NCBI GenBank assembly: GCA_049664225.1 | Contig: JBATEX010000133.1 | Span: 919 to 64,918 of the forward strand | Length of the DNA stretch: 64,000 bases | Direction of reading: 5' to 3' | From: Thermoanaerobaculia bacterium | GTDB taxonomy: Bacteria > Acidobacteriota > Thermoanaerobaculia > Multivoradales > JAHEKO01 | Shown here: positions 971 through 62,454 of the stretch, piece by piece | Layout: each line of letters opens with the position of its first letter | Position numbering within the stretch: the stretch's first letter is position 1 | The notes under the pieces: model-generated | The model's input: only the letters and a program-made list of their open reading frames with translations | The model's database searches: none | What the model was told of the DNA's origin: nothing | Program-made: the position numbers and the translations under genes

Positions 971-1840
971 TCACTCGATCTCAATCCGATCGGCACCCGA
1001 GTAGACATTGAATCGTCCATCGCGCAGGAAACCGACCAGCGTCATACCCATTTCCCTGGCTAGCTCCACTGCCAGGCTACTGGGTGCACCGACCGCTGCC
1101 AGAACCGGAATGCCAGCCAAGGCGGCCTTCTGGACCAGCTCGAAGCTGGCCCGCCCGCTCACCAGGAGGACGCGATCAGAACCGGGAAGCCCCTCTTCGA
1201 GCAGCAGGGACCCCACCACTTTGTCGACGGCGTTGTGTCGCCCCACATCCTCTCGCAGAGCCAGCAGCCGGCCCGTGCCGTCGAAGAGGCCGGCGGCATG
1301 CAGGCCACCCGTCTCGGAGAACACGGGTTGTGCCTCGCGCAGGGTAGCCGGCAACCGCACCAGCTGCTGTGGGTAGAGCCGAAAGTTGCCGATTGGGACT
1401 CGGGGACATGATATCTGAACCGCTTCGAGGGAGGCTCTGCCGCAGATCCCACAGCTCGAGGTAGTAAAGACGTGACGGCTGAGCCGTTCAGCATCGAACT
1501 CGACTCCCGGTCTCAAGCTGACCTCGACGACGTTGTCAGGATGCCGCGAAGAGTTGGCGTCGCAGTAGTCGATTCGCCATATGTCGCGATGGTGCTTCAG
1601 CATCCCTTCACCACTGAGAAAACCGGCCGCCAGCTCGAGGTCGTTGCCCGGGGTCCGCATGGTGACGGCTACACTGTGCCGCTGCCTCCGGCCCTCGATC
1701 TCAGCCACGACCCCAATCTCCAGAGGCTCCTCAACCGCCACAGAATCTGCCCGTTCAACAGACTCGTTCCCCTCCACTGCAACTACCCTGGCGGGTACCG
1801 TGGCTCCCGGAGCACCCTTGCGCTTGCGGTCGTCACCCAT
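971..1840 (-). CDS. fdhD: Formate dehydrogenase accessory sulfurtransferase FdhD
   Basis: SSCGICG cysteine motif, GGLHAAGLF and GRHNAVDKVVG motifs. Start placed at the internal ATG 1838..1840, which overlaps the mobA TGA by 1 nt (TGATG). The ORF-track extension to 2059 runs into mobA. Confidence 0.88.
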   Translation of the reverse strand: MGDDRKRKGAPGATVPARVVAVEGNESVERADSVAVEEPLEIGVVAEIEGRRQRHSVAVTMRTPGNDLELAAGFLSGEGMLKHHRDIWRIDYCDANSSRHPDNVVEVSLRPGVEFDAERLSRHVFTTSSCGICGRASLEAVQISCPRVPIGNFRLYPQQLVRLPATLREAQPVFSETGGLHAAGLFDGTGRLLALREDVGRHNAVDKVVGSLLLEEGLPGSDRVLLVSGRASFELVQKAALAGIPVLAAVGAPSSLAVELAREMGMTLVGFLRDGRFNVYSGADRIEIE

Positions 1841-2496
1841 CACGAACTCGAAACCTCTGAGGCCACTGCGGGGATGCCCTGTTGAAGGTCCCTTGGTGAG
1901 TTGATATTCACCAATAGGTCGGGTCGGTAAAAGGCCAGGTCGTGCGTGATCGGAATCGACGCCGTTTCGATCTCGGCCAGAAAGCGCCAGGCTTCCAGAC
2001 GACCGTCGCGTAGCCTCTCTTCGAGGGGCTCCCTGCACGACGCCGAGTAGAGTCCGCACAGGGGCTGCTGCCGCCCCTTCCAGACCGCGACTCTGGCTCG
2101 TGGATGAGCCCAGGCTTCGTCTCCTGCCGAGGCTCGAGGCTTCTGCTCGGTGCTCCAGTCCGCAACATGTTCGACGAGGTCGACACTGACGAATGGCAGA
2201 TCACAGGCGACAACGAACACGGGACGCGAGCGGGCCCACTCGAGGGCAGCATGAATCCCGGCCAGCGGACCGAGCCCCTCGAACCGATCGTGGATCACGG
2301 GTACACCGAGCTCTCCATAGGACCGGCCACCGACCGTGACCACGACGACTTCGGACATAACCTCCTGCAGTACTTCGAACGGGTGCAGAAGCAGCGCCTT
2401 TCCCAACCATGGCAGCAGAGCCTTGTCCCGCCCCAACCGGCGGCTCTCGCCCCCGGCCAGAACGGCACCGACTACAGAGGTCTTCAAGCTTGGCAT
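1840..2496 (-). CDS. mobA: Molybdenum cofactor guanylyltransferase MobA
   Basis: VGAVLAGGESRRLGRDKALL nucleotide-binding motif near the N-terminus; about 218 aa. Start could instead be 2553. Confidence 0.82.
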   Translation of the reverse strand: MPSLKTSVVGAVLAGGESRRLGRDKALLPWLGKALLLHPFEVLQEVMSEVVVVTVGGRSYGELGVPVIHDRFEGLGPLAGIHAALEWARSRPVFVVACDLPFVSVDLVEHVADWSTEQKPRASAGDEAWAHPRARVAVWKGRQQPLCGLYSASCREPLEERLRDGRLEAWRFLAEIETASIPITHDLAFYRPDLLVNINSPRDLQQGIPAVASEVSSS

Positions 2497-13984: not shown

Positions 13985-16900
13985 CAGCTCGTCTCTCCAA
14001 GAGGCTGTGTCACCAGGCCATCGGCGGGGCCAGAATCTGCTGCCAGCTCTTCATGCGCTATCGGATCGGGCCTGCGGTCGACCAGGGAGTAGACCACCGG
14101 GATCACCACCAGAGTCAGCAGCGTGGCCACGCTCAGACCGCCGATTACGGTAATGGCCAGTGGCGCTCGCAGCTCCGCTCCTTCGCCGAGCCCCAGTGCC
14201 ATCGGCAGCAGACCCAGAATGGTCGTCGCCGAGGTCATGAGGATTGGCCGGAGTCGGTCACTGCCGGCACTGATCAAAGCCTCCGTTCGCCCCATGCCGG
14301 ACCGACGCCGCTGGTTGACGGCATCCACCAGCACAATCGCGTTGTTGACCACGATTCCGGCTAGCATCACCGCCCCGATCATGGCCACGATGTTGATCGT
14401 CCGACCGGTGATCGCCAGTGCCCCGATGACCCCAATGGCTCCCAGCGGCAGGGTGAAGATAATGACGAACGGGTGCAGGAACGACTCGAACTGCGAGGCC
14501 ATCACCAGGTAGACCAGAAAGATCGCCAGGGCCATGGCCATCATCAGGGAGCGCACGGCCTCGGCCCGCTCCTCCTCTTGTCCGCTCAAGGCCGCCGTAG
14601 CCCCTGGAGGCAACGGTGTCTCGGCGAGAACTGCCCGGACATCCGACGCCACCGCACCCATGTCCCGACCCGCCAGATTGCCCGAAATGACGCCGGTGCG
14701 CTTCTGGCCGATTCGCCGAATCTCGCTGGGGCCCTCGACCAAGGTCACGGCAGCCACCGACTTCAGATAGATCGGCACGGAGTCACGCTGCGCGATGATG
14801 AAGTTGTTGACGTCGCCCACCGAGGCCTGGCCCAGGTCCACGGAGCGAACGACGATGTCGATCTCCCGGTCGCCTTCGGTGAACCGGGTGGCCACATCGC
14901 CTTGCACCTTCTTGCGAAGGGTGTCTGCCACGTCACCCAGATTGAGTCCGAGCTGGGACAGCTGATTGCGGTCGAAAACGACCTGCAGCTCCGGATTGCC
15001 CAACTCGGCTGAGGACTTGACATCGACAAGACCTGGAATCTGATCGATGCGCTGCCTGAGCTCTGTCGTCGCCAGGTGCAGCTCGGTCAGGTTGTCGCTG
15101 TAGACCTCGACTTCGATCGGGGTCCTGAAGCTGAAGAAGGTCGGCCGTTCGAACTTGAAGCGCGCCAGCCCGGAGACCTCGAGACGTTCTCGCAACTCGG
15201 CAATCACGCCAGCCTCCTGCTCGGGCGATGTTCCCTGAGCCATCCGCACTTGGATTCGGCCCGCGTTCTCACCCTCGGTACCTGTGTTGGTCAGCGACAG
15301 CCCCCGCCCACCCGCCATCGAAGAGTGCGACGCGACCAGCTCGTTGCCGTCCAATACGGCTTCGGCATCCCTGATGAAGCGATCGGTGATCTCGAGCGGA
15401 GTCCCTTCCGGAAGCTCCACCATGAAGCTGAACTCGCCCTGCGAAATCGTTGGCACAAGGTCGAAGCCGAGTCGTGGGATCATCCAGATCGAAGCCGCGA
15501 AAGCCACCAGGACGATCGCCAGGACGACCATGCGCGCCTGCAAAGCGCCGCGGAGAATATGTGGATAGGCTGCCGCCGCCCATCCGAGGGCTTTGTCGAA
15601 GGCGCGTGAGAAGGGCAGCGCCAGCAGCGTCAGCCCCTTGCCGATCCAGCTCAGCACGAAGCGAACTCCTCGAATCACCAGAGACGGCAGACCGACGAAC
15701 ACCATGTGAAAGGCCCGCCGGACTCTTCCACCCTGGCCGACTGCAGCAACCGACGTGGCGCCGTCCACGCTCGGGCCGCCACCGGCCAGCGCCGACATCA
15801 TGGGAATCAAGGTCAGGGCGACGGCCAGCGAGGCGAGGAGGGCAAACGAGACCGTCAAAGCCATGTCGCGGAAGAGCTGGGCCGCGATTCCCTGCAGGAA
15901 GACCACGGGCAGGAACACCGCCACGGTGGTCAGCGTCGACGCTGCCACGGCGCGACCGACCTCCGAGGCTCCGTCGCGTGCCGCCTCGAAGGCGGAGGCT
16001 CCCGCCTCGCGGTGCTTGAAGATGGACTCCAACACCACGATGGCGTTGTCCACCAGCATCCCGACACCGAGTGCAAGCCCACCGAGAGACATGATGTTGA
16101 GAGATGTACCGGTGCGGTACATCAGGAAGAATGTGGCGACCACGGAGATGGGTATCGAGACACCGATGATCAGGGTGCTGCGAGCATCCTTGAGGAAGAA
16201 GAGCAGCACCAGAATGGCAATTCCGCCACCCAGCAGGGCATTGCTCAGGACCTCACGAATAGAAGCTTGAATGAACTTGGACTGGTCGACTCCTGTAACC
16301 ACCTCGATACCTTCGGGGAGCTCTTTCGAAATGCTCTCGAGACGACGCTCCACTGCCTTGGCCACCTGTACCGTGTTGGCGTCGCCTTCTTTGTAGATCG
16401 CCAACTCCACAGCTTCGCGGCCGTCGAATCGGGTGATGACTTCACGCTGCTTGTGGCCACGAGTCACCTCACTGACATCGGCCACCCTGACCACCCTCCC
16501 GTCCTGGGCCAGCAGGACAGTATCCATGATGTCCTCGAGATCCACGAACTCGTTGTTGGAGCGCACCAGATAGCGGGCCTCCTCCTCGTAGAGACTGCCG
16601 CCAGCCTGATTCACGTTATCTTTGAGCAGCGCCTCGTTCACCGCTTGGATACTCAGGCCCAGAAGCGCCAACTTGCCTTCGTCGACCCTGACCTGGATCT
16701 CCTCTTCGTAACCACCGTTGACTTTGATGGCGGCCACGCCTTCGGTCGATTCCAGGTCCTTCTTCAGCACCTCCTCGGCAACATAGCGAAGCTGGAAGAG
16801 GTCGTCTGTCCCCTGCATATAGAGGCGCAGAATCGGGTCGTTTGTGGGGTCGAAGCGCAGCACCACCGGTTTCGTCACGTCGCGGGGGAGCCTCACGACA

Positions 16901-19588: not shown

Positions 19589-19712
19589 GGGCTAGAGTAC
19601 TGCGAAATATTCGACTGCCGACGGCTGAGCCCCGTGCTACTCTCGGGCAAAATTATGGCGCATACGCCACTCTGATGGGATTCTCATCAGTTTCTTGCCC
19701 TCGAACCCGCCC

Positions 19713-22700
19713 ATGATCGAAGCACCGGCACTTCTCCGCTCCTACGTCCAGGGCATACGCCGTCTCAGCGGCGCGGAATGTGCCAGCCTCTTCATCCCGG
19801 AGCCGATGAGTCGCCTGGCGCGTCCCCTGCTGATCCACGACGGTGAAGCTCCCCCGGTTCCGGAACTCGAAGACCTCGAGTCCGCGGAGGCGTTCGCCAA
19901 CCACATAGCGAAGACCAGCGCGGGGAACGGGGACGAAGAGAGCTCCGGAATACCGTCCCTCGTCATCAGCGAGGCCGCCGATTCCGGCCTGGTGCCGCTG
20001 CCATCGGTGGAGCCCCCATTGACGCTCGGGGCTCTGTTCGGCGACGAGGGCCAGCGGCGACGCAGCGACGCCCGGGAAGGCAAAGGTGGTCCCCTCCTGG
20101 GGGCCTGGATCGGCCTTCGCTTCGCCGCCGGAAAGGGCACGGTATTGGACCGCCTGGCCAGCAGCTATCTACCCAGCAGCCTGCGACAGGCCCAGGATCC
20201 GGAGCACTGGTGGGATTGGCTATTCGCCCTTGGCGGAGCCCTGGCCAGTCACACCAGCCAGGTCTCGGCGATCCTGAAGGATCCCAACACTGGCCTGCCC
20301 GATCGCAAGGAGTTCCAGGCGGTCCTCGCCGACCGATTCCGCGAGGCGGTCGACGAAAGCTCGCCTCTGTCTCTGCTCCTTATCAACCCGGACGATTTCT
20401 ACATCGTCAACGAACGCTTCGGCCGGGAGAGCGGCGACCAGTGCATCCGCGCCATCAGTGAGGCTCTGCGCACGACGCTCCGGGGTACCGACCTGGTGTC
20501 ACGCTACGGGGGCGTAGTCTTCGCGGTAGTTCTTTCCGAAACCCCGGCTCACGAGGCTCGGGAGATCGCCGAGCGCGCCGAGCAGCTCCTCGGCAGCCTC
20601 AGCCTCCTCGACTCTCAGGTCTCGCTCTCCTTCAGCATAGGGCTGGCCACCCTCCAATGCGGGCAGGCGGACGTTGCCAATCCTCTCGAGTTGGTAGGTC
20701 GAGCGGATCAGGCCTTGAATACGGCCAAGCGCATGGGCGGCGGCACGGTGGTGAGCTGGCAAGAGGACTTCGCTTCCCAACAGGTCGGCAGCTTCGATCG
20801 ACTGAGCGGCATCTTCACCGGCAACATGGCGAAGGACTACCGCAACATGGTTCTGCTCAGGGACACGATCGACATCATCGCCCTGCATGATGCCTTCGAT
20901 GATCTTTCAGCTCAGGTTGTCGACAAGCTCTATACGGCCTTCCTACCCAGCCGCATCGGGCTCTTTACCAGAGACGAAGAGGGCCATCTGCAGATCTTGC
21001 GGGGTCTGACTCGCACCGATGGTGGAAGCGGGTTGCAGAGTCGAATCGAGACTCTCGAGCTCGACACTGAGGAGCGCCAGCGCCTGGAAATCGCTGCCGC
21101 CGAGCTGGAAGCGAACGAGACCAGCTACGACTCGCCTGCAGTCGACGGCCAGCAGTCATCACCGACGAAACGAATCTGCTTCACGGTACCTCTCATCGCC
21201 GGCAGCGATTGCCTCGGCTGCCTGATGATCGATGGCCAACACCAGTCCATGACGCTCGACTCTTCGGATCTCATCTTTCTCAAAGCCCTGTCGGCCCAAT
21301 TGGCAGTCGCCATGGACCGGGCTCGTCTGGCTGACCTGGAGAGACGACGCCAGGAGATGGAGCACCGCAGGCTGCGCGCCGAGCTGAGTGACCTTCGCCA
21401 GGCCTTGCAGCAGGTCAAGCTCGTCTACCGATCGAGCGAGATGGAGAGTGTGGTCGGTACCGCGCGACGAGCGGCGCCTACCGACGCAACTGTCCTGATC
21501 ACCGGTGCCAGTGGTACAGGAAAAGAGCTCCTGGCTCGCACGATCCATCAGCTCAGTCCGCGCAGGAGCGCCGCACTGGTCATCGTCGATTGTGGGGCCA
21601 TAGCTTCGTCCCTGATCGAAAGCGAGCTCTTCGGGCACGAAAAGGGCGCCTTTACCGGTGCACAGCAAAACCGTGCTGGGCGGCTGCTGCAGGCCAACGG
21701 TGGAAGCGTGCTGCTGGACGAAATCGGAGAGCTGCCGCTCGAGGTCCAAAGCAAGCTCCTGCGCTTCGTACAGGAGAAGCAGTTTACGACGGTCGGCGGC
21801 TCCAAGACCCGCCGAGTGGATGTCAGGATCATCGCGGCCACCAACAGGGACCTTGCTCGGGAGGTGGAGGCGGGGCGCTTCCGGGAAGATCTCTACCACC
21901 GACTCAACGTTCTGCACCTGAAGATTCCGCCGCTCAAAGAGCGGCCCGATGACATCCTCCACCTCGCTCGGCACTTTCTCGAGCTCTACGCAGTCCAGTA
22001 CCAGAAGCAGGCTCGTGCGCTGTCCCGCTCGGCAGAAGCGGCGATGCTGGCTCACGACTGGCCTGGCAATGTGCGCGAGCTCCAAAATCGGCTCCTGCAA
22101 AGCGTCATCCTCAGCGACGATGAGGAGCTCGAGCCCGAGGAGCTCGGTCTGACCGGTGAGGCGCTCGCCTCCGGACCCTTGCAACCCCGTGTGAGGGAGA
22201 CCGGAACCCCGTCCGAGCCGGCCGATGCCAACACCCAAGCAGTGAAAGGGGAGGAGGAGAGGCGCCGGGATCCCTGGGGAGAGCTCAGGACAGCCCTACA
22301 GCGACAAATCGCATTGGCGGCTGAAAGCGATCCTCCACTGGGCCTGCCCCTCGGTCGCTGGCTGGCAGACGACCTGATTGTCGAAGCCGGCGCCGCTACC
22401 GATCAGGTGGCCCGTCGCGGCTGTCTCTTCGTCGGCTTGCCTGAGAGCACCTTCCGACGCCGCCTGAGAAAAGCCAGCCAGCAGATCCAGTCGGGTCTGG
22501 CACCGCGCTCCGGCAGCTGGAACGAAGTCCAGAGAGTTCTGTCTGACCTGGTGCGGTCCCCCGCGCGGGAGCAGGGGCGACTCCTGGAGCAGGTCCAGGA
22601 GATTCTCCTTGAAGAGATCGTCTCGCGATTCCCGGACGATGTCCGAATCGGTTCCCTGCTGCTGGGTGTAAGCCCTCCCACCTATCGTCGTCGACTCCAA

Positions 22701-22760
22701 GATGGGGGCCAAGAGCCCACTCCCACCGCTGCCGGCGAGCTCCATCCGTCGGAACCCTGA
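19713..22760 (+). CDS. Sigma-54-dependent transcriptional activator (bEBP) with N-terminal degenerate GGDEF and GAF domains
   Basis: AAA+ core with Walker A GASGTGKE, GAFTGA loop, Walker B LLDEIGE and WPGNVREL. The upstream GGDEF-like domain carries RGTD...RYGGVVF, followed by a GAF-like region. The C-terminus has two Fis-type HTH-like segments. The start may be TTG 19695. Confidence 0.88.
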   Translation: MIEAPALLRSYVQGIRRLSGAECASLFIPEPMSRLARPLLIHDGEAPPVPELEDLESAEAFANHIAKTSAGNGDEESSGIPSLVISEAADSGLVPLPSVEPPLTLGALFGDEGQRRRSDAREGKGGPLLGAWIGLRFAAGKGTVLDRLASSYLPSSLRQAQDPEHWWDWLFALGGALASHTSQVSAILKDPNTGLPDRKEFQAVLADRFREAVDESSPLSLLLINPDDFYIVNERFGRESGDQCIRAISEALRTTLRGTDLVSRYGGVVFAVVLSETPAHEAREIAERAEQLLGSLSLLDSQVSLSFSIGLATLQCGQADVANPLELVGRADQALNTAKRMGGGTVVSWQEDFASQQVGSFDRLSGIFTGNMAKDYRNMVLLRDTIDIIALHDAFDDLSAQVVDKLYTAFLPSRIGLFTRDEEGHLQILRGLTRTDGGSGLQSRIETLELDTEERQRLEIAAAELEANETSYDSPAVDGQQSSPTKRICFTVPLIAGSDCLGCLMIDGQHQSMTLDSSDLIFLKALSAQLAVAMDRARLADLERRRQEMEHRRLRAELSDLRQALQQVKLVYRSSEMESVVGTARRAAPTDATVLITGASGTGKELLARTIHQLSPRRSAALVIVDCGAIASSLIESELFGHEKGAFTGAQQNRAGRLLQANGGSVLLDEIGELPLEVQSKLLRFVQEKQFTTVGGSKTRRVDVRIIAATNRDLAREVEAGRFREDLYHRLNVLHLKIPPLKERPDDILHLARHFLELYAVQYQKQARALSRSAEAAMLAHDWPGNVRELQNRLLQSVILSDDEELEPEELGLTGEALASGPLQPRVRETGTPSEPADANTQAVKGEEERRRDPWGELRTALQRQIALAAESDPPLGLPLGRWLADDLIVEAGAATDQVARRGCLFVGLPESTFRRRLRKASQQIQSGLAPRSGSWNEVQRVLSDLVRSPAREQGRLLEQVQEILLEEIVSRFPDDVRIGSLLLGVSPPTYRRRLQDGGQEPTPTAAGELHPSEP

Positions 22761-24716: not shown

Positions 24717-25568
24717 CTACCCGGGGCTGCCCTTCGAGGCACTCCCGGGGGTGGAGCTCTTCTTCCCGAGGCGGCGCTCCAAGACCGCAGCCACCTCTCC
24801 GCCGATCAAGATCGACATTGCGGTCAGGTACAGCCAGATGAGCAGTGCCACCATTCCGCCGACGATGCCATAGACAGCACTGAAGCGCCCAGTGTTGATC
24901 AGAAAGAGCCGAAAGCCGACCGTCGCCACCGCCCATAGCGAAGTGCCGATCACGGCACCGGCCAGAATCCACCGCTTGGATCGGCTCTGGTCGTGATTCG
25001 GCAGCGTGAAGTAGATAGACCACATCATCAGCACCGAAAGCGCGAGGGTGAGCGGCCACCTGATGTTGCTGTTGAAGGTCTCGAAGCTGAGGATTCTGGC
25101 CACCTCGGGTCCAGCCAAAAGGAAGGCGGCCTGCGCAACGAGGGCTGCCGCAAGCAACAGCAACATGGCCAGCGAGAGAGCGCGCTTCTTCCACCATCGA
25201 TGGGCCCACTTCGCCTCATAGGCCTTGTTGAGACTGTCAGCCAAAGCAGTGAAGACGTTCGAGGCCGTCCAGATCGTCAACAAGACGCCAATCGACAGGG
25301 CGCTGGGGCTTCGAGACTCCGTAACCTGCAGCACGAAGCGGCCGATCGTCTCGGCGGATGCAGGTGGTAGTGCCACCAGTAGCTCCTCCATTACCCATTC
25401 GAAGGCCGCGCGCCGCCCGATCAGACCGGTGAGACTGAATAGGGTCAGGATCATGGGAAAAAACGAGAGAAAGAAATAGTAGGCGATGCTGGCCGACTCC
25501 GCATTGAGTCGGTCGCGGCGACAGCACTGAATCACCTCTCGCGGTATGGATAGGCGTTGCTCAGCCAT
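24717..25568 (-). CDS. YihY/BrkB-family inner membrane protein
   Basis: Polytopic membrane protein with ASIAYYFFLSFFPMILTLFSL and IGGEV motifs characteristic of YihY/virulence factor BrkB. Confidence 0.8.
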   Translation of the reverse strand: MAEQRLSIPREVIQCCRRDRLNAESASIAYYFFLSFFPMILTLFSLTGLIGRRAAFEWVMEELLVALPPASAETIGRFVLQVTESRSPSALSIGVLLTIWTASNVFTALADSLNKAYEAKWAHRWWKKRALSLAMLLLLAAALVAQAAFLLAGPEVARILSFETFNSNIRWPLTLALSVLMMWSIYFTLPNHDQSRSKRWILAGAVIGTSLWAVATVGFRLFLINTGRFSAVYGIVGGMVALLIWLYLTAMSILIGGEVAAVLERRLGKKSSTPGSASKGSPG

Positions 25569-39470: not shown

Positions 39471-39965
39471 TCAGACCCGCCCCGTCGCTCGATCGCCCAG
39501 CTCCCGGAGCACATTCTCGGGAACCAGACCGGTGAGATCCCCACCCAGGAAGAAGACCTCCTTGACGAGGCGGCTCGATAGGTAGATGTACTCCTCCTTG
39601 GGCACCATGAAGACCGTCTCGATCCGGGGATTCAGGCGCCGATTCATCAGCGCCATCTGGAACTCATACTCGAAGTCCGAGACGGCTCGCAGACCACGGA
39701 TGATGGTGCGAGCTCCCACCTGGTCCATGAAGTCGGCCAGCAGGCCCGAGAAGCTCTCCACTCTGCAGTCTTCGCATTCTCGAAGCTCGTGCGTGATCAT
39801 GGCCATCCGCTCGCTGACGGAAAAGACCGGCTTCTTCTCTTCGTTGCCGAGCACCGCTACCACCACTTCGTCGAATACCGATCGGCATCGACCGATGATG
39901 TCCAGATGGCCGTTGTGAATCGGATCGAACGAGCCTGGGTAAACGGCGATTCGCTTTCTACTCAT
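39471..39965 (-). CDS. coaD: Phosphopantetheine adenylyltransferase
   Basis: AVYPGSFDPIHNGHLDII and ISSRLVKE-like C-terminal motif; 164 aa. Confidence 0.93.
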   Translation of the reverse strand: MSRKRIAVYPGSFDPIHNGHLDIIGRCRSVFDEVVVAVLGNEEKKPVFSVSERMAMITHELRECEDCRVESFSGLLADFMDQVGARTIIRGLRAVSDFEYEFQMALMNRRLNPRIETVFMVPKEEYIYLSSRLVKEVFFLGGDLTGLVPENVLRELGDRATGRV

Positions 39966-42196
39966 GGTCCATCCTGGGATAGATCGAAGGTCACGACGTT
40001 GAAGGCAGCATCCATGAGCCGCAGCAGAATGAGCTTTCCAGAAGCCGGAATATCCACCAGGAGTCTCTCATTTTGTCCGTCCAGAAGTCCATCCACCGGT
40101 CTGGCCGGCAGCCATTCTCCCGCATCGAGGCTGAATTCAGCGCGCCGAAGAGGGCTCCACCTGTCCTCGACTTGCACTTCCAGGCTCTCTGCCTGTCGTT
40201 GGACACCCACCAACTCCGGCACGCTGTGGTCCACGAGGACCGGCTCACTGATCTCCTCGGACCGCTGCACCCCCGATTCCTCGGACCGGATTCGATCTCT
40301 AACGCTCAGCCTGAACCGATATCTACCGTCGGGAAGAGCCGTCGCGTCGAAGCTGTGGTGAGAGTCCCTCAGATCCTTGGCCATTGGCAGCCAGCTCTCA
40401 TTCCAGTCAGCCCGACGAAATTCCAGATCGAAGAAGAGGTCATCTTCGTTGGGATCCTCCGACTTCCACCGAAGCGTTCGATAACCTTTCTTCCAGAGGG
40501 TCTTCAACCGCCGGTTCTCGCTGGGTGTTTCGGCTTCCAATACCGTGAAGATCCCCTGACGGTCCGGATGCACGGGCTCATAGACCTGCTGGGCTGGATT
40601 GAAGTTGGCCGGGACCAGGACCTGACCCGGTTCCATGACCGTCAAGCTGTCGATTCTCGGTGGCAGATTCGTCTGTTTGTAGGAGATCTGAATCTCGCTG
40701 AGGCTCGGTGAGGTTCCGCCGTCAGCCTCCAACTCGGCTCGCCACTGGAAGTAACGGCCGGCTGGCAGCTGCGCCAGCGATACTTCCATCCCAACTTGCC
40801 AAAGTGTCCAGTCCGACCAGGTTCGATCGGGATCCGAGCTCATGCCACTGCGGAAGGAGAATCGGACCTGGCTGCCCTGAGGGACCTTTCCCTGCCAGCG
40901 GAGGTTGCCGAAGGTCGCGAACTGCTGGGCGTCCAAAGTCGGGCTGGTGTAGACGCCTCGTCGTTCGGTGCGGCCCGAGATCCGATAGAGAGCCGCCGCA
41001 TTCGTGGTCGCGAAGGCAGGACCGGGGTCATCTTCCAGAAGCACGACTACCTGACGTTCATCGACGTCCTTCTCCAGCACCGGCTTGCCGTCGCTGAGGC
41101 TGAAGACCTTGCCCTCCAGACCAGTGCCCACCCACAAGCGGCCACGCTGCCAGGCGATGCTGTAGACCGTCTCCTCCTCGAAAGCGGTCAAAGATTGCAC
41201 CAGACCTTCAGAAGAGATCCTCAGGATCTCCGACCGGGGGCCCTGAAAACCGCTCGGTCTCGTACCGACCATCTCCGACTCTCCCCTACTTTCGGCGGAG
41301 ACCGTGATCTGTACCGTCACCTCGCCGCCATCGTTACCTTCCTCGGAGCTCGACTCGTCTTCCTCAGAGGGCTCTTCCGCTGGCTGGTGCAGACTCACAA
41401 GACTCGCCTCCGAGGCCAGAACCGCGGCGTAGCAGTCGCCGTCCGGATCGGCGGCGAAGGCCACCACCTCCGGTTGCGCAGCATCATAGAGAGTGCGAAC
41501 AGTGCCATCCGGGTCGAGTCGGAGAATGAGACCTTCACCGGCGGTACCCATGAGCACCTGGCCATTGGGCAGCGCCTTCAGAGTCCTCAGATGCGTGTCC
41601 TGGCTGTCGAACAAAACCTCAGCCTGACCATCGGCTTCTACCTTGAAGAGTTTGCCATCCGTTCCGGTCGCCACCAGGAGACTTCCACCAGCACCCCTCT
41701 CGAGGTCCCAGATGTAGGTCTGCTCGGGATCGAAGAAGACCGTCGCGTCGTCTTCGCCGAGGCGATATACCTTGCCGTTCGGAGAAGAGCCGGCAAAGAC
41801 CGCGCCATCCTCTGCTACCCAAACGGCGAAGATCTCAGGCTCCTCCGCCTCGAAGAGCACAGTCGTCTCACCCTGCCGATCAATCAGCAGGACCCGGCCT
41901 CCGTTGCCAGTGCCCACGACCCAACCGTCTGGATGGGAAGCTGCCGACAGGAGGAACGGCTCGTTGACCTCTGTCAACCGCTCCACTTGATCTGCCAGCC
42001 GCAGCGTTCCAAGCGAGTCCACTCCGATTCCATCCAGAGTACCGGCCAGGAACGCTGTTCGACTCTGCATGGAGTAGATCCGCACCTCAGCCTCCGCCGG
42101 CCTGGCCGGTCCGACGAGGGCCAAAACCAGGACCGCCAAACCCAGCCAACGAAAGTCCGTCATCAGTTGATGCACTCCTCTTGATCTTCGTTTCAC
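39962..42196 (-). CDS. Large exported hypothetical protein, beta-propeller-like N-terminal half plus beta-sandwich C-terminal half
   Basis: Signal peptide (...LVGPARPAEA). Repeated G(T/S)xxGK(V/L)(Y/F) blade-like motifs, an acidic linker, and no catalytic motif recognised. Overlaps coaD by 4 nt. Confidence 0.7.
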   Translation of the reverse strand: MKRRSRGVHQLMTDFRWLGLAVLVLALVGPARPAEAEVRIYSMQSRTAFLAGTLDGIGVDSLGTLRLADQVERLTEVNEPFLLSAASHPDGWVVGTGNGGRVLLIDRQGETTVLFEAEEPEIFAVWVAEDGAVFAGSSPNGKVYRLGEDDATVFFDPEQTYIWDLERGAGGSLLVATGTDGKLFKVEADGQAEVLFDSQDTHLRTLKALPNGQVLMGTAGEGLILRLDPDGTVRTLYDAAQPEVVAFAADPDGDCYAAVLASEASLVSLHQPAEEPSEEDESSSEEGNDGGEVTVQITVSAESRGESEMVGTRPSGFQGPRSEILRISSEGLVQSLTAFEEETVYSIAWQRGRLWVGTGLEGKVFSLSDGKPVLEKDVDERQVVVLLEDDPGPAFATTNAAALYRISGRTERRGVYTSPTLDAQQFATFGNLRWQGKVPQGSQVRFSFRSGMSSDPDRTWSDWTLWQVGMEVSLAQLPAGRYFQWRAELEADGGTSPSLSEIQISYKQTNLPPRIDSLTVMEPGQVLVPANFNPAQQVYEPVHPDRQGIFTVLEAETPSENRRLKTLWKKGYRTLRWKSEDPNEDDLFFDLEFRRADWNESWLPMAKDLRDSHHSFDATALPDGRYRFRLSVRDRIRSEESGVQRSEEISEPVLVDHSVPELVGVQRQAESLEVQVEDRWSPLRRAEFSLDAGEWLPARPVDGLLDGQNERLLVDIPASGKLILLRLMDAAFNVVTFDLSQDGP

Positions 42197-52487: not shown

Positions 52488-53924
52488 TCATCCCTTGATC
52501 ACCCCGATCGGCTTCAGCTGTGCGACTTTGCGACTGATCCCTGCTCCTTCTACTACATCGACCACCGCCGAGACGTCCTTGTAGGCCTCGGGCATCTCCT
52601 CGGCGACGGTGGCCATGCCTGCGGCCATGACCACAACTCCTTCTCTCTCGAGCTCGTCGAGCAGTCTCCGTCCTCTGGCCTGCTTCTTGGCCTGCCTACG
52701 GCTGAGTCTCCTACCCGCGCCATGACAGGTGGAGCCAAAGGTCTCGCGGTAGGCTCTCTCGGTCCCCACCAGCACGTAGGAATACCGTCCCATGTCTCCG
52801 GGTATCAAGACGGGCTGACCGACCTCCCTGTAGGCTTCGGGTGTCTGAGGGTGACCAGGAGGATAGGCCCTGGTGGCACCCTTCCGGTGGACACAAAGGC
52901 GTCGGCTGCGTCCCTCGATCTCGAAGGTCTCGAACTTCGCGATGTTGTGGCAAACGTCGTAGACCACCGTGAGACCGGCCTGGCTGGGCCCCAGACTCAG
53001 GGCCTGCATGAAGCTCTCGCGAGCCCAATGGGCCATGACCTGCCGGTTGGCAAAAGCGAAGTTGGCCGCCGCCGACATGGCGCCCAGATAGTCGCGGCCT
53101 TCCGGGGACTGGAGCGGCGCGCAGCAGAGCTGACGATCGGGCAGCTCGATGCCGTAACGGGCGGCGGCTTCGACCATCACCCTCAGGTGGTCCGAGCAGA
53201 CCTGATGACCGAGGCCTCGGGATCCACTGTGAATTGTCAGGGTCACCTGATCCTGAAATAGCCCCAAGGCAGCCGCAGCCACCTCGTCGTAGATCTCGGC
53301 CACGTACTGGATCTCAGCAAAGTGATTTCCGGAGCCCAGTGACCCGAGCTGACTGCGCCCTCGCTGATAGGCCCTGTCCGAGACGAGATCCGGCCGCGCG
53401 CCCTCAATGCAGCCGTTCTCTTCCAGGAACTCCAGATCCTCCTCGTAGCCCATTCCCCTGTCGACGGCCCAGGCTGCCCCTTGGGCCAGAACCTGGGTCA
53501 ACTCCTGTCGACTCAACCTCAGATCGGTGCGGCCCTTGCCGATGCCGGTAGGAATGTTCTGGTAGAGGCGGGTAACGAGATCCCGCACTCTGGGCTGGAT
53601 TTCGGCGCGACTCAGACCTGAGCGCAAGAGGCGGACGCCTCAGTTGATGTCGTAGCCGACGCCGCCAGGCGAGACAACGCCCTTCTTGCTGTCCATCGCC
53701 GCCACGCCACCGATGGGGAAACCGTAACCCCAGTGGATATCGGGCATCGCCATGGAAGACCCGACGATTCCCGGCAGGTGGGCGACATTGACCACTTGCT
53801 GGAGGCATGGATCCTGGTGCATCTCACCCATCATCTCCGCGCTTGCGAAGACGAGACCCTCGACCCGCATCTTCCCCCGCTTGGGAATTCGCCAACGGAA
53901 CTCGTCGATCTGCTCGATATGCAT
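52488..53924 (-). CDS. rtcB: RNA 3'-phosphate/tRNA-splicing ligase RtcB with in-frame TGA (53640..53642) at the conserved Cys codon: candidate selenoprotein (alternative: pseudogene)
   Basis: Two same-frame ORFs joined by one TGA: ...[19 protein letters not shown].... Downstream catalytic His context STCHGAGRR is intact. 478 codons, typical for RtcB. A SECIS-like hairpin lies downstream of the TGA, and archease is next door. Confidence 0.75.
53606..53626 (-). promoter_or_regulatory. Candidate bacterial SECIS stem-loop (UGCGCUCA-GGUC-UGAGUCGCG) 14-34 nt 3' of the rtcB UGA
   Basis: Pairs A24-U29, C23-G30, U22-A31 and C21-G32; bulged U33; then G20-C34, C19-G35, G18-C36 and U17-G37 (numbering from the U of UGA = 1). 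Apical loop is GGUC. Confidence 0.55.
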
Positions 53925-54017: not shown

Positions 54018-54440
54018 TCAAAGGTCGAAGATGACTCGTGCCGACCAACCCGTTGTCGAGGACTTCACCCTCAGTTGATGGTAGGTGACCGCCTTGATCA
54101 GCGTCTTGATCTCGTGCCGGTCAGGATCGTAGCGCTCACCCCGAACCGTTCCACGGAGACGCCAACCGCCGCCCTCCGCCTCGACTTCGAGATCGGTCTG
54201 GCGCAACAGAACCGACTTCGTCTCGAAGAGGTAAACAATCTCGCTGAGCCACTCGACCAGCAGGTCTTCTCGACTCGGGGCGATGAGATCGATCGGCAGC
54301 TCGAGCTCGAGATTAAGCCGTTCCACCTCGGTCAGGGTATCGGTCAGAGCCAGGAGGCCCTCGGACAGCAGACTCTCGAAGCTGGCCCCCTCGATCTCGA
54401 CACCCATGTCGGCCGTGTGCTCGATGAACCTGTAGGCCAT
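54018..54440 (-). CDS. Archease (RtcB activator)
   Basis: MAYRFIEHTADMGVEIEG... and C-terminal IKAVTYHQLRV...GWSARVIFDL; 140 aa. Its ATG overlaps the lipB TGA by 1 nt. Confidence 0.9.
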   Translation of the reverse strand: MAYRFIEHTADMGVEIEGASFESLLSEGLLALTDTLTEVERLNLELELPIDLIAPSREDLLVEWLSEIVYLFETKSVLLRQTDLEVEAEGGGWRLRGTVRGERYDPDRHEIKTLIKAVTYHQLRVKSSTTGWSARVIFDL

Positions 54441-60079: not shown

Positions 60080-60679
60080 TCACTCCTCCTCTTCCGGCAG
60101 CTCCAAGCCGAGCCGATGCAACAAGTTCTGCATGATGCGTGCGGTTAGCCCCCACACCTGCCTTGACCCCAGGTGGTAGACGCGGATCATGCGCTCTACG
60201 CCATCGATCTGCACGATCCGGTCTTCGATAGCCCTGAAATCGGCAAAGGCCAGAAGAGGAACGGAGAACACCTCCGCGATCTCTTCCTCATTAATGTTCG
60301 TCTCGAGAGCGCTCGGCACCGCACCGACACACGGGATGATCCTGAATCCACTCGGCGTTTCGGCCTCGTCCAGCTCACCCAGTCGGACCACCTGCCTGGT
60401 GTCGAAGCCCAGTTCTTCCTCGGATTCGCGTAAGGCGGCGGCCCAGGGGTCCTCGCCTATCTCCCGACCACCTCCCGGAAACGCGATCTGACTCTTGTGG
60501 TGGGGCAGCGACTCAGCCCGTTTGGTCAGTAGAGTCCAGAGCTCGCCGGCATCGACGAACAAGGGGACGAGGACCGCCGCCTCCCGAGCGTCGCTGGGTG
60601 GTAGACGACTCGGCGAAGGTGTGCTCAGACGTTGCCTGACCTGTTGGATCCAGCTCTGCGGCCCCTGTTCCTCGGTCAT
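60080..60679 (-). CDS. NUDIX hydrolase, CoA pyrophosphatase-like
   Basis: NUDIX box GGGREIGEDPWAAALRESEEELG, preceded by the NuCoA-like LLTKRA...IAFPGG. Confidence 0.85.
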   Translation of the reverse strand: MTEEQGPQSWIQQVRQRLSTPSPSRLPPSDAREAAVLVPLFVDAGELWTLLTKRAESLPHHKSQIAFPGGGREIGEDPWAAALRESEEELGFDTRQVVRLGELDEAETPSGFRIIPCVGAVPSALETNINEEEIAEVFSVPLLAFADFRAIEDRIVQIDGVERMIRVYHLGSRQVWGLTARIMQNLLHRLGLELPEEEE

Positions 60680-62454
60680 TGGTCGGTCTTCCGTTCAGGC
60701 AGGGACAAGCCGGTAACCGAAAAGACCTGAGTGCTGTCTGCGGCGCCGGGCATCCTCAACCTCACATCATAGAAATTCTGCTCCGCCTCATCCCACCAGG
60801 CTGGATGGCGCGCGACCGGATCGAGGCCGCCGACATGGAACGCTACCCGGCCGTTTGGCTGTAGTACCATGTTACCCAACTCTCCTCCCCCCACCTCGAG
60901 CTCCGGCTCCGCACCACCGCCGAACTCGAAGTACACGGAATCGAGTGGCAACGGAGCGGCAATCAGCAGCTCTGCCGGCTTGCCGCCCTCCATCTGCCAC
61001 CTTCCATCGCCCTGCAGCCTGACCGTGTTTCGCAGCGATCGGACCCAGGCACCTCGACCGAGAATCTCACCGAAACCGGGGAGGGGGCGCTGACTGGTCT
61101 CCAACGGCAGATAGCTCGCAACGAAGCTTTTGGCGTGTTGCAGGCTGCCATCCGAATCGACAGGCGAACCGGCAGGTGTGAGCCACACTGGATAGAGGAA
61201 CAGGCCTGCGAGGGCGGCCGTGATACCAAGCCACTGAGGCCGAGGTTGGCTCGCCGGCACGAACCACAGCGCCCCGAACAAAGGCACGAACCACCGATTT
61301 CCGATGGCCGTCGGGCCGCCGGCGAAATCGAATGGCGACAGCAGGGCAATCAGCCCGATGGCTAGCCAACAGATTGCCACCAGACTGGAACGTCCGGAGC
61401 CCCTGGTCCAGAGACCCAGGACGAGAACCGTTGGCAAGAAGTAGGGCAACAATCCCAGGTGCCGCCCGGCGATCGAGTAGGCGACATTCCAAGCCGTCAA
61501 TCGACCGCTGATGCGAACGGGGAAGGGCCTTCCCGGTGCCGCCTCGAAGGGGCTCGAGAGCGACTTCCCAGCGAGGTCACCGAGCGGCTCTCGGCCCAAC
61601 GGCTCGGCAGCCAGAAGAACCGAAGACGATGGCTCTGGAAAGGGCATCTGCCAACTGCCGGCCCTGTTCCACTCGATCAGTCCGGAGAGGGCCAGAACCG
61701 CAAGCAGGCCTGCAGACAAGCAGGCCAGGGCGGCCCGCCGGTTGTCGCGCGGAGCCGCAGCGACGGCAGGCAGGGCCAGGAGAATGTAGACGGGATTGAA
61801 AGCTGCCATCAGGCCCAGCAATAGACCCGCGGCCCCCCACCGCCATCCCACCCTGGCCCTGGTGGGCAGAGGCCTGTACATGTCAGACGGCCCTTCCGAG
61901 ACCGGCTCTTCCAGGCCAAAAACCAGAAAGAATGTCGACACGGACAGGGCCAGCAGGAAAATCGGCGGCTCGGCGACCTGCAGGTAGCGAAACACGACCG
62001 AAGTGAACAGGAACAGGCCGACGAGCCATGGCGCCGACCAGCCGAGCCTCATATGGAGGCGGCGACTCGCCAGGCCGACCGCCAGGCAGAGCAGCATCAG
62101 ATTCGCTACCGTAGGTCCTCTCGCCGGCGCCAGACGAACGAAAGGTGCCAGGTAGGCGGAATAGAAGACGGGACGGGCGAAAACCGGCTCTTCGTCGAGA
62201 CGTCCATTCCGCAGGCTCAGACCCGTGATTTCGACCCCCGCTGAGGCCACCCGCCGACGGTCTTTGGCGTCGAAGACGGCATCCAGATCACGGGCCAGGC
62301 TCTCGGCCTGCAGGACATGGGTCGCCTCCTCACCGATCCAGCGCGGCCACCCGGGCCGATCGAGTACCGCCACGGCGAGACCCCACACGGCAACCACGAC
62401 GACTAGAACAATCGAGTTCCTTCGCCCGCCTGAGCTTGTCCAGAGACTCGTCAT
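60676..62454 (-). CDS. Polytopic membrane protein, possible GT-C-fold glycosyltransferase
   Basis: 592 aa. Many TM helices in the first two thirds, an acidic first-loop segment (IGEEATHVLQAESLA), and a soluble C-terminal domain. Sits next to a GT4 gene. Family assignment is tentative. Confidence 0.5.
   Translation of the reverse strand: MTSLWTSSGGRRNSIVLVVVVAVWGLAVAVLDRPGWPRWIGEEATHVLQAESLARDLDAVFDAKDRRRVASAGVEITGLSLRNGRLDEEPVFARPVFYSAYLAPFVRLAPARGPTVANLMLLCLAVGLASRRLHMRLGWSAPWLVGLFLFTSVVFRYLQVAEPPIFLLALSVSTFFLVFGLEEPVSEGPSDMYRPLPTRARVGWRWGAAGLLLGLMAAFNPVYILLALPAVAAAPRDNRRAALACLSAGLLAVLALSGLIEWNRAGSWQMPFPEPSSSVLLAAEPLGREPLGDLAGKSLSSPFEAAPGRPFPVRISGRLTAWNVAYSIAGRHLGLLPYFLPTVLVLGLWTRGSGRSSLVAICWLAIGLIALLSPFDFAGGPTAIGNRWFVPLFGALWFVPASQPRPQWLGITAALAGLFLYPVWLTPAGSPVDSDGSLQHAKSFVASYLPLETSQRPLPGFGEILGRGAWVRSLRNTVRLQGDGRWQMEGGKPAELLIAAPLPLDSVYFEFGGGAEPELEVGGGELGNMVLQPNGRVAFHVGGLDPVARHPAWWDEAEQNFYDVRLRMPGAADSTQVFSVTGLSLPERKTDQ

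Follow-up and report, generated by a model that had tools for sequence, protein, structure and literature searches.

We analysed a 64-kb stretch of DNA (64,000 nt; hereafter the window) from contig JBATEX010000133.1 of a Thermoanaerobaculia bacterium, and in particular a short RNA hairpin that follows an in-frame UGA codon in rtcB, the gene encoding the RtcB 3'-phosphate/5'-hydroxyl RNA ligase. The hairpin is a candidate bacterial selenocysteine insertion sequence (SECIS), and the UGA is the proposed codon for selenocysteine (Sec). Nucleotides are numbered from the U of this UGA as nt 1, such that the window coordinate equals 53643 - n. Arms and loop are given as in the minimum free energy (MFE) structure. 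The locus comprises the following features.

52488..53924, minus strand: rtcB coding sequence, 478 codons including the in-frame UGA, identified by translation and similarity to RtcB
52488..52490, minus strand: terminal stop codon of rtcB, TGA
53640..53642, minus strand: in-frame UGA, proposed Sec codon at residue 95, aligned with the Cys of GGVG(Y/F)DINCG, i.e. Cys98 of P. horikoshii RtcB
53627..53639, minus strand: spacer, nt 4-16, consisting of codons +1 to +4 plus the first base of codon +5, without conserved RNA structure
53619..53626, minus strand: 5' arm of the hairpin, nt 17-24, UGCGCUCA
53615..53618, minus strand: apical loop GGUC, nt 25-28, with G26 and U27 as the presumed contact of SelB
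53606..53614, minus strand: 3' arm of the hairpin, nt 29-37, UGAG-U-CGCG with a one-nucleotide bulge, placed by RNAfold at U33 (53610)
54018..54440, minus strand: archease gene directly upstream of rtcB (Pfam Archease, E=4.2e-39), apparently in the same operon

The translated rtcB reading frame (53924..52488) is unbroken except for a single internal stop, the TGA at 53642..53640. The mRNA around this codon reads AAC UGA GGC GUC CGC CUC UUG CGC UCA GGU CUG AGU CGC GCC, which from the UGA onwards matches exactly what a first-pass annotation of the locus had written down. The predicted product is similar to the RtcB proteins of T. thermophilus (2epg; E=1.9e-190) and P. horikoshii (E=2.7e-175), and Pfam RtcB is assigned to its close orthologs. 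On the basis of full-length similarity, metal ligands, the DIN-U motif and the adjoining archease gene, the host protein passes as an RtcB ligase. Archease is an activator of RtcB guanylylation. The gene order in the window is E3 - E2 - lipB - archease - rtcB - lipA, of which E2 - lipB - archease - rtcB - lipA recurs in orthologous loci.

The UGA occupies the position of the invariant Cys in the motif GGVG(Y/F)DINCG, as found in 82 Cys-encoding orthologs and in the RtcB structures of the PDB. In P. horikoshii RtcB, this Cys98 is a ligand that bridges both Mn ions, and its replacement by Ala abolishes every ligation step; Asp95 is a further metal ligand (PMC9745838). The equivalent of Asp95, the Asp of the DIN motif, lies within the 94 amino acids upstream of the UGA. 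The correspondence between UGA and Cys is a Sec/Cys pair at a functional residue. UGA has not been reassigned in the host, as rtcB itself terminates with TGA (52490..52488), and no SECIS-type hairpin follows this terminator. Hence, one and the same gene uses UGA as a stop codon and, as proposed here, as a Sec codon.

A scan for the pattern GGxGYDIN-TGA-G, using one genome per species, yielded at least 119 loci. The active-site Cys codon of rtcB is thus replaced by TGA in at least 119 species; every listed locus is an rtcB gene in which the frame continues. The carriers include Thermodesulfobacteriota ("delta proteobacteria"), Acidobacteriota, Nitrospirota, Binatia, Gemmatimonadales, Eisenbacteria and others. 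We refer to the genomic loci as L081-L199; the corresponding protein entries are P0010-P0032, P0074, P0102, P0105, P0112 and P0116. Some TGA loci, termed Nitrospirota-type, have a different hairpin and are treated separately below.

The hairpin in the window (nt 17-37; 53626..53606) has a stem of 8 bp, interrupted by a single bulge, below a GGUC loop, with in-frame RtcB coding sequence on both sides, so that it lies inside a coding region as the first-pass annotation had stated. Folding of 53590..53645 and of 53560..53680 with RNAfold gave MFE structures that include the pairing of nt 17-24 with nt 29-37, the bulged U33 and the GGUC loop at nt 25-28. This reproduces the structure of the first-pass annotation. 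In most orthologs, the bulge is at C34 rather than at U33. The energy of the hairpin alone is -7.8 kcal/mol, and that of nt 14-42 is -8.5 kcal/mol. Synonymous recodings of the same peptide are equally stable, with a mean of -8.55 kcal/mol against the actual -8.5 kcal/mol. Furthermore, the window contains 1691 TGA trinucleotides, and a hairpin that fits a loose bacterial SECIS consensus follows 6.2% of them; after 2.0%, there is one in the register of the rtcB hairpin. As a single-sequence observation the hairpin is therefore real but weak and within chance; its significance comes from the comparative data only.

A covariance model of the hairpin, built from the orthologs, scored 34.7 bits at the rtcB site when run on the window, and the next match scored 16.3 bits. 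This second match (16531..16568, minus strand) lies in an AcrB-family transporter gene with no TGA just upstream, and was dismissed as chance. A small 5-bp hairpin, GAGGC-GUCC-GCCUC, is also predicted by MFE folding at nt 2-15 (53628..53641, minus strand), where it overlaps the GA of the UGA. Since synonymous sites in codons +1 to +4 are free to vary among the orthologs, we judged it unconserved.

Bacterial SECIS elements have a loop of 3-9 nt, a stem of 4-16 bp, a UGA-loop spacing of 16-37 nt and an energy of at most -7.5 kcal/mol according to the bSECISearch model, with a G within loop positions 1-2 that is usually followed by G or U (PMC13188914). With a loop of 4 nt starting with GG, a stem of 8 bp, a spacing of 21 nt (nt 4-24) and an energy of -7.8 kcal/mol, the hairpin in the window shares every structural constraint of this consensus, although it is near the weak end of the energy range. 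It differs from the generic case in its host family, since RtcB is absent from the selenoprotein papers found in our literature search. The SECIS interpretation of the first-pass annotation is supported by this fit together with the comparative data.

That annotation had also likened the hairpin to the SECIS of E. coli fdhF, quoting the fdhF sequence. The quoted string is correct: it has at least 99% identity to fdhF in 5413 E. coli records, and 100% in those listed. Both elements lie in coding sequence right after the Sec UGA, both have a short upper stem, one bulged nucleotide and a GGUC apical loop with an A-U closing pair, and the octamer CAGGUCUG of fdhF is identical in the window. The two differences pointed out at the time, in loop distance and in the strand of the bulge, are also correct. 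In fdhF the loop is at nt 22-25 (with G23/U24), whereas in the window it is at nt 25-28, one codon (3 nt) farther from the UGA. Likewise, the fdhF bulge is U17 on the 5' strand, whereas the bulge in the window is U33 or C34 on the 3' strand. Given these differences in loop distance and bulge strand, the hairpin does not belong to the fdhF-type SECIS elements, although it would function in a similar way. Moreover, fdhF encodes a molybdopterin oxidoreductase, in contrast to the RNA ligase of the Acidobacteriota-like bacterium studied here. The resemblance is best read as convergence on recognition by SelB; comparison of the sequences offers no evidence of common descent, and the two elements would not belong to the same lineage.

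Comparative sets were compiled from the non-Nitrospirota-type TGA genes (97 genes for codon entropy, 95 for folding, 84 for recoding and 90 distinct sequences for covariation) and from Cys genes (82 for codon entropy, 81 for folding and 71 distinct sequences outside the Sec clades for covariation). Local folding of nt 14-42 placed a hairpin at one shared position in all 95 TGA sequences. The first-pass annotation would have been refuted by absence of the hairpin from other TGA orthologs; among those that are not Nitrospirota-type, it is present in 95 of 95. The median MFE of nt 14-42 was -9.5 kcal/mol in the TGA genes (n=95) compared to -4.0 kcal/mol in the Cys genes (n=81; Mann-Whitney p=2e-20). 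Strict parsing of MFE structures in 66-nt contexts recovered the hairpin in 72 of 126 sequences; competing folds and the -7.5 kcal/mol threshold hid many others, and folding of nt 14-42 was more informative. A G-loop hairpin of at least 6 bp in the expected register was found in 65 of the 84 TGA genes (77%), but in only 4.3% of their synonymous recodings drawn with each gene's own codon usage. For the peptide encoded in the window, 4.8% of the synonymous recodings yielded such a hairpin.

In the TGA genes, codon usage differs between the spacer and the hairpin. The spacer codons +1 to +4 are synonymously free, with a codon entropy of 1.6-2.4 bits. From codon +6 to codon +11, by contrast, the sequence is almost invariant, being CGC UCA GGU CUG AGC CGC or one of a few alternatives. 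Codon +6 is CGC in 78 of 81 cases and has the lowest codon entropy of the 155 scorable columns, codon +7 is in the lowest 3%, and codon +9 (Leu, encoded by CUG or UUG only) is in the lowest 2%. Among the Cys genes, codon +9 does not stand out, and the amino acids at codons +6 and +7 are too variable for scoring. The six third positions within the hairpin differ at 0.16 per site between TGA genes, compared to 0.59 at four-fold degenerate sites across the gene.

The loop is also constrained. Among the TGA orthologs we counted GGUC (29), GGUU (11), GGUCU (10), GGGU (8), GUGU (7), AGUUU (5) and others, and every loop type tallied in the 90 distinct sequences has a G within its first two positions. 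Pairing occurs in two registers across the orthologs, where the loops have 4 or 5 nt (single-sequence folds give 3-6 nt), and each sequence was scored in its better register. Out of seven stem pairs, a mean of 6.19 was formed in the 90 distinct TGA sequences, with at least six pairs in 70 of them. Conversely, a mean of only 2.75 was formed in the 71 distinct Cys sequences outside the Sec clades, none of which reached six.

Compensatory changes occurred at five of the seven stem levels (CG/AU, GC/AU, CG/GC, UA/AU and AU/CG), the clearest case being the stem GCGCUCA/UGAGCGC versus GAAGACC/GGUCUUC. In one fixed register, 78% of the cells were paired, against 29-44% when the partner strand was slid, and none of 500 shuffles matched the observed pairing or covariation score. 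Hence, the stem covaries in the TGA genes, which was one of the checks proposed by the first-pass annotation. With the ungapped 90-sequence alignment as input, RNAalifold returned no consensus structure, a consequence of the two registers and of loop lengths that range from 3 to 6 nt; realignment with the covariance model did not improve the alignment.

Several of the changes in the stem alter the protein, at codons +6, +10 and +11 after the UGA. A change from CGC to GGC (Arg to Gly) removes the bulge (e.g., L008, L029, L112, L186), a change from AGC to GAG (Ser to Glu) creates a perfect 7-bp stem (e.g., L122, L142, L145, L195), and a change from CGC to GCN (Arg to Ala) restores the stem (e.g., L017, L131, L184). 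The peptide RSGLSR is absent from Cys-only clades, which have RTDLT, RTNLT, ATPL and other sequences instead. The RNA stem shapes the protein sequence of RtcB, and not the reverse. Conservation of the hairpin, its covariation and its frozen synonymous sites are specific to TGA-carrying genes.

The Nitrospirota-type genes have a longer hairpin after the same UGA, with a consensus fold at nt 15-54 and up to ~16-25 bp in single sequences. Its loop of ~9 nt (nt 31-39) is A-rich and often lacks a G within loop positions 1-2. Among the members that fold better, energies range from about -17 to -36 kcal/mol, and compensatory changes are seen at 5 of 14 pairs. The loci are as follows.

Nitrospirota-type loci, part 1: L022, L090, L092, L093, L098-L100, L106-L108, L110, L126, L129, L133, L140, L141
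Nitrospirota-type loci, part 2: L146, L147, L150, L158, L167, L168, L171, L173, L178, L187, L193, L194, L199

This hairpin shares with that of the window the codon it follows, the protein family, the downstream location in coding sequence and the presence of covariation. It is a different architecture that would serve the same UGA; at least two predicted architectures exist for this codon.

Taken together, the hairpin at 53626..53606 very probably acts as a bacterial SECIS for the rtcB UGA at 53642..53640, a reading that rests on sequence comparison. If the element works as in E. coli fdhF, the hairpin would start 13-14 nt downstream of a UGA positioned in the ribosomal A site, just beyond the mRNA entry channel. 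SelB, loaded with GTP and Sec-tRNA(Sec), would then bind the GGUC loop (G26, U27) and the bulged helix through its C-terminal domain. Binding would tether the complex to the ribosome, and Sec would be inserted in competition with release factor 2. The expected product is a full-length RtcB of 478 amino acids, in which Sec would replace the Cys that bridges the two active-site Mn ions. Binding by SelB, actual Sec insertion and the presence of selA, selB, selC and selD in the host genome are inferred.

Several observations weigh against this interpretation. A Pfam scan of 46 open reading frames (ORFs) detected no selA, selB or selD in the 64-kb window; the window contains no tRNA gene, and no tRNA-Sec was found in the 60 related loci scanned. 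The Sec competence of the host organism is thus assumed. The hairpin is short and barely passes the energy criterion (-7.8 kcal/mol). Dinucleotide shuffling gave z-scores of only -0.7 and -1.8 in two RNAfold contexts, which are not significant. The first-pass annotation had suggested folding the region as a check, and the outcome clearly does not refute it, the hairpin being part of the MFE structure of 53590..53645; a competing fold beats it in a 66-nt context. Rfam gave no match to the hairpin when the whole window was searched at gathering thresholds, and at E<=10 a search of 161 nt gave a spurious miRNA as its sole match. The eight closest Cys orthologs keep the hairpin, as detailed below. 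Finally, an engineered P. horikoshii RtcB with Sec at the same active-site position as proposed here (U98) showed spontaneous self-cleavage (PMC4150793), hence not every RtcB can be expected to accept Sec there without difficulty. In the engineered protein, Sec was incorporated at a UAG codon by means of an EF-Tu-dependent tRNA and without any SECIS (PMC4150793), whereas the TGA genes described here are natural, hairpin-bearing and widespread.

With respect to Sec, the window also contains an FdhD/NarQ-family gene (971..2059, minus strand), which encodes a maturation factor of formate dehydrogenase. Formate dehydrogenase is the commonest bacterial selenoprotein. The gene hints, faintly at best, at a formate dehydrogenase in this organism, and no gene for the enzyme itself was found in the 64-kb window.

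The alternative that survives best is that the hairpin has a function independent of Sec, for instance in ribosome pausing near the metal-site motif or in mRNA stability, and that a role as SECIS is secondary or co-opted. In that case the hairpin would be older than the UGA or exist beside it. This would agree with the eight closest Cys orthologs of the window gene (L200-L206, L209; TGT or TGC, with the same synteny), which keep the hairpin with the codons CGC UCA/UCG GGU CUG AGY CGC/CGG. Three further Cys genes (L002, L012, L013) likewise keep it, bringing the total to 11, again with the same codons. Furthermore, Cys-Cys pairs in the window's clade differ at only 0.22 per site in the hairpin third positions, against 0.53 at four-fold sites gene-wide; the latter are near saturation among the genes of this clade (0.42-0.63 divergence). 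The hairpin in Cys orthologs is not dictated by the protein, because only 4.8% of the recodings form it and RSGLSR is not conserved in Cys-only clades.

However, a neighbour-joining tree showed that the hairpin-keeping Cys genes are all nested in or adjoin TGA lineages, and that, within the window's clade, TGA is basal and also the state of the majority. Ten Cys genes passed a strict hairpin test, all of them within this nested set, and among the 71 distinct Cys sequences from outside the Sec clades, six of seven pairs were never reached. Comparison with Cys orthologs, another check proposed by the first-pass annotation, thus gave a divided answer: the hairpin is missing outside the Sec clades, but is kept in the eight closest relatives. 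The older, more diverged Cys branches of the window's clade (L207, L208) have lost both the hairpin and the peptide. In the one sizeable Cys (TGT) clade (L203, L209, L200/201), three third-position changes (A24->G, U33->C, C36->G) compare with a rough neutral expectation of 3.4-4.8, based on small numbers, whereas the equally diverged TGA pair of the window and L161 shows 0 changes compared to ~3 expected. In addition, only SECIS elements are subject to the rule that the loop has a G and then a G or U, at a constant distance from the UGA. We therefore consider a Sec-independent function unlikely. The hairpins in the nested Cys genes are read as leftover SECIS elements after recent Sec-to-Cys switches, which would fit the apparent relaxation; the SECIS interpretation needs these recent switches as an added assumption. 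First signs of decay of the hairpin were seen as A24->G in L200-L202 and as C36->G in L209.

It is even less probable that the UGA does not encode Sec, and is either a genuine stop in a split or decaying rtcB or a codon passed by near-cognate read-through, with the hairpin as a general stimulator. The lack of sel genes in the window would agree with this, and so would the output of gene callers, which annotate the 379-aa downstream part only. Relatives found by protein search were of two kinds, full-length 478-aa Cys orthologs with 72-90% identity and many 379-aa proteins with 89-100% identity that start just past the TGA. The 379-aa entries are TGA forms shortened by gene callers, a systematic mis-annotation in the protein database. 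Across the TGA orthologs, the N-terminal 94 amino acids and the C-terminal 383 amino acids are equally conserved relative to the window (median identities of 60% and 62%, respectively), so that selection acts on both halves at the protein level. Splitting or truncation should inactivate the enzyme, since the Asp of the DIN motif is upstream of the UGA and residue 95 is the bridging ligand. Moreover, TGA is found at this one codon in at least 119 species, non-TGA orthologs invariably have Cys there, as is the signature of a Sec/Cys pair, and TGA interchanges only with TGY, with a parsimony estimate of at least 21 Sec/Cys switches among 180 tips. The loop also follows the G-G/U rule of SelB-type elements.

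A further alternative, in which G+C-rich coding sequence forms the hairpin by chance and the recoding signal is elsewhere or not needed, is very unlikely and already contradicted by the comparative data: the frequency of consensus-type hairpins after TGAs in the window, the weak shuffle z-scores and the equal average stability of synonymous recodings would allow it, but all 95 non-Nitrospirota-type TGA orthologs, which come from several phyla, share the hairpin position, the loop type and the covarying stem, the hairpin is seen in 77% of the genes where recoding predicts 4.3%, and its synonymous sites are the most conserved in the gene.

We searched the literature (full text, for RtcB, COG1690 or RNA ligase combined with selenoprotein, and the deep-Sep supplements) and found no natural Sec-containing RtcB; the supplementary family lists of a 2026 review and of BSepDB were outside this search. 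The only match for Sec in RtcB was the engineered U98 protein (PMC4150793), and NCBIfam has no Sec-specific RtcB model. Accordingly, the hairpin appears to be an ordinary bacterial SECIS in kind, with an apparently unreported selenoprotein family as its host. We give about even chances to the broader proposal that RtcB is a widespread and unrecognised selenoprotein family. It would then comprise at least 119 species (Acidobacteriota, Thermodesulfobacteriota, Nitrospirota, Binatia, Gemmatimonadota and others), with Sec in place of the Mn-bridging Cys, at least 21 Sec/Cys switches in 180 sequences, leftover SECIS elements in Cys revertants, a hairpin that constrains the protein (RSGLSR, KTSLVF), and databases that hold the 379-aa forms.

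Most known selenoproteins are oxidoreductases. RtcB is a non-redox metalloenzyme, a ligase in RNA repair, and natural Sec as the bridging ligand of its two-manganese site would, if true, widen the known chemistry of selenium. The active-site Cys of RtcB is easily over-oxidised and has been seen as a sulfonic acid in a crystal structure (PMC9745838); Sec might raise the resistance of the enzyme or shift its metal preference. The TGA-form rtcB genes are mis-annotated, the protein database having only 379-aa fragments of them. In addition, the rtcB family offers a clean natural experiment on the evolution of SECIS elements, with at least two architectures, protein changes that preserve the stem, and revertant hairpins that have apparently started to decay.

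A scan for further TGA-interrupted genes in the window returned only same-frame neighbouring genes and noise. A TGA at 24808 (minus strand) is followed by a hairpin whose loop starts with GGU; judging from the coordinates, this TGA is not in the frame of the BrkB-family gene at that site, and we attribute it to chance. Two long ORFs on the minus strand, 39962..42196 (744 aa) and 60676..62454 (592 aa), have a coding-like composition and gave no Pfam match at E<=1e-5. Finally, a 1021-aa ORF on the plus strand (19695..22760) combines GGDEF, GAF and sigma-54 activator AAA+ domains, a regulator architecture that seemed uncommon.

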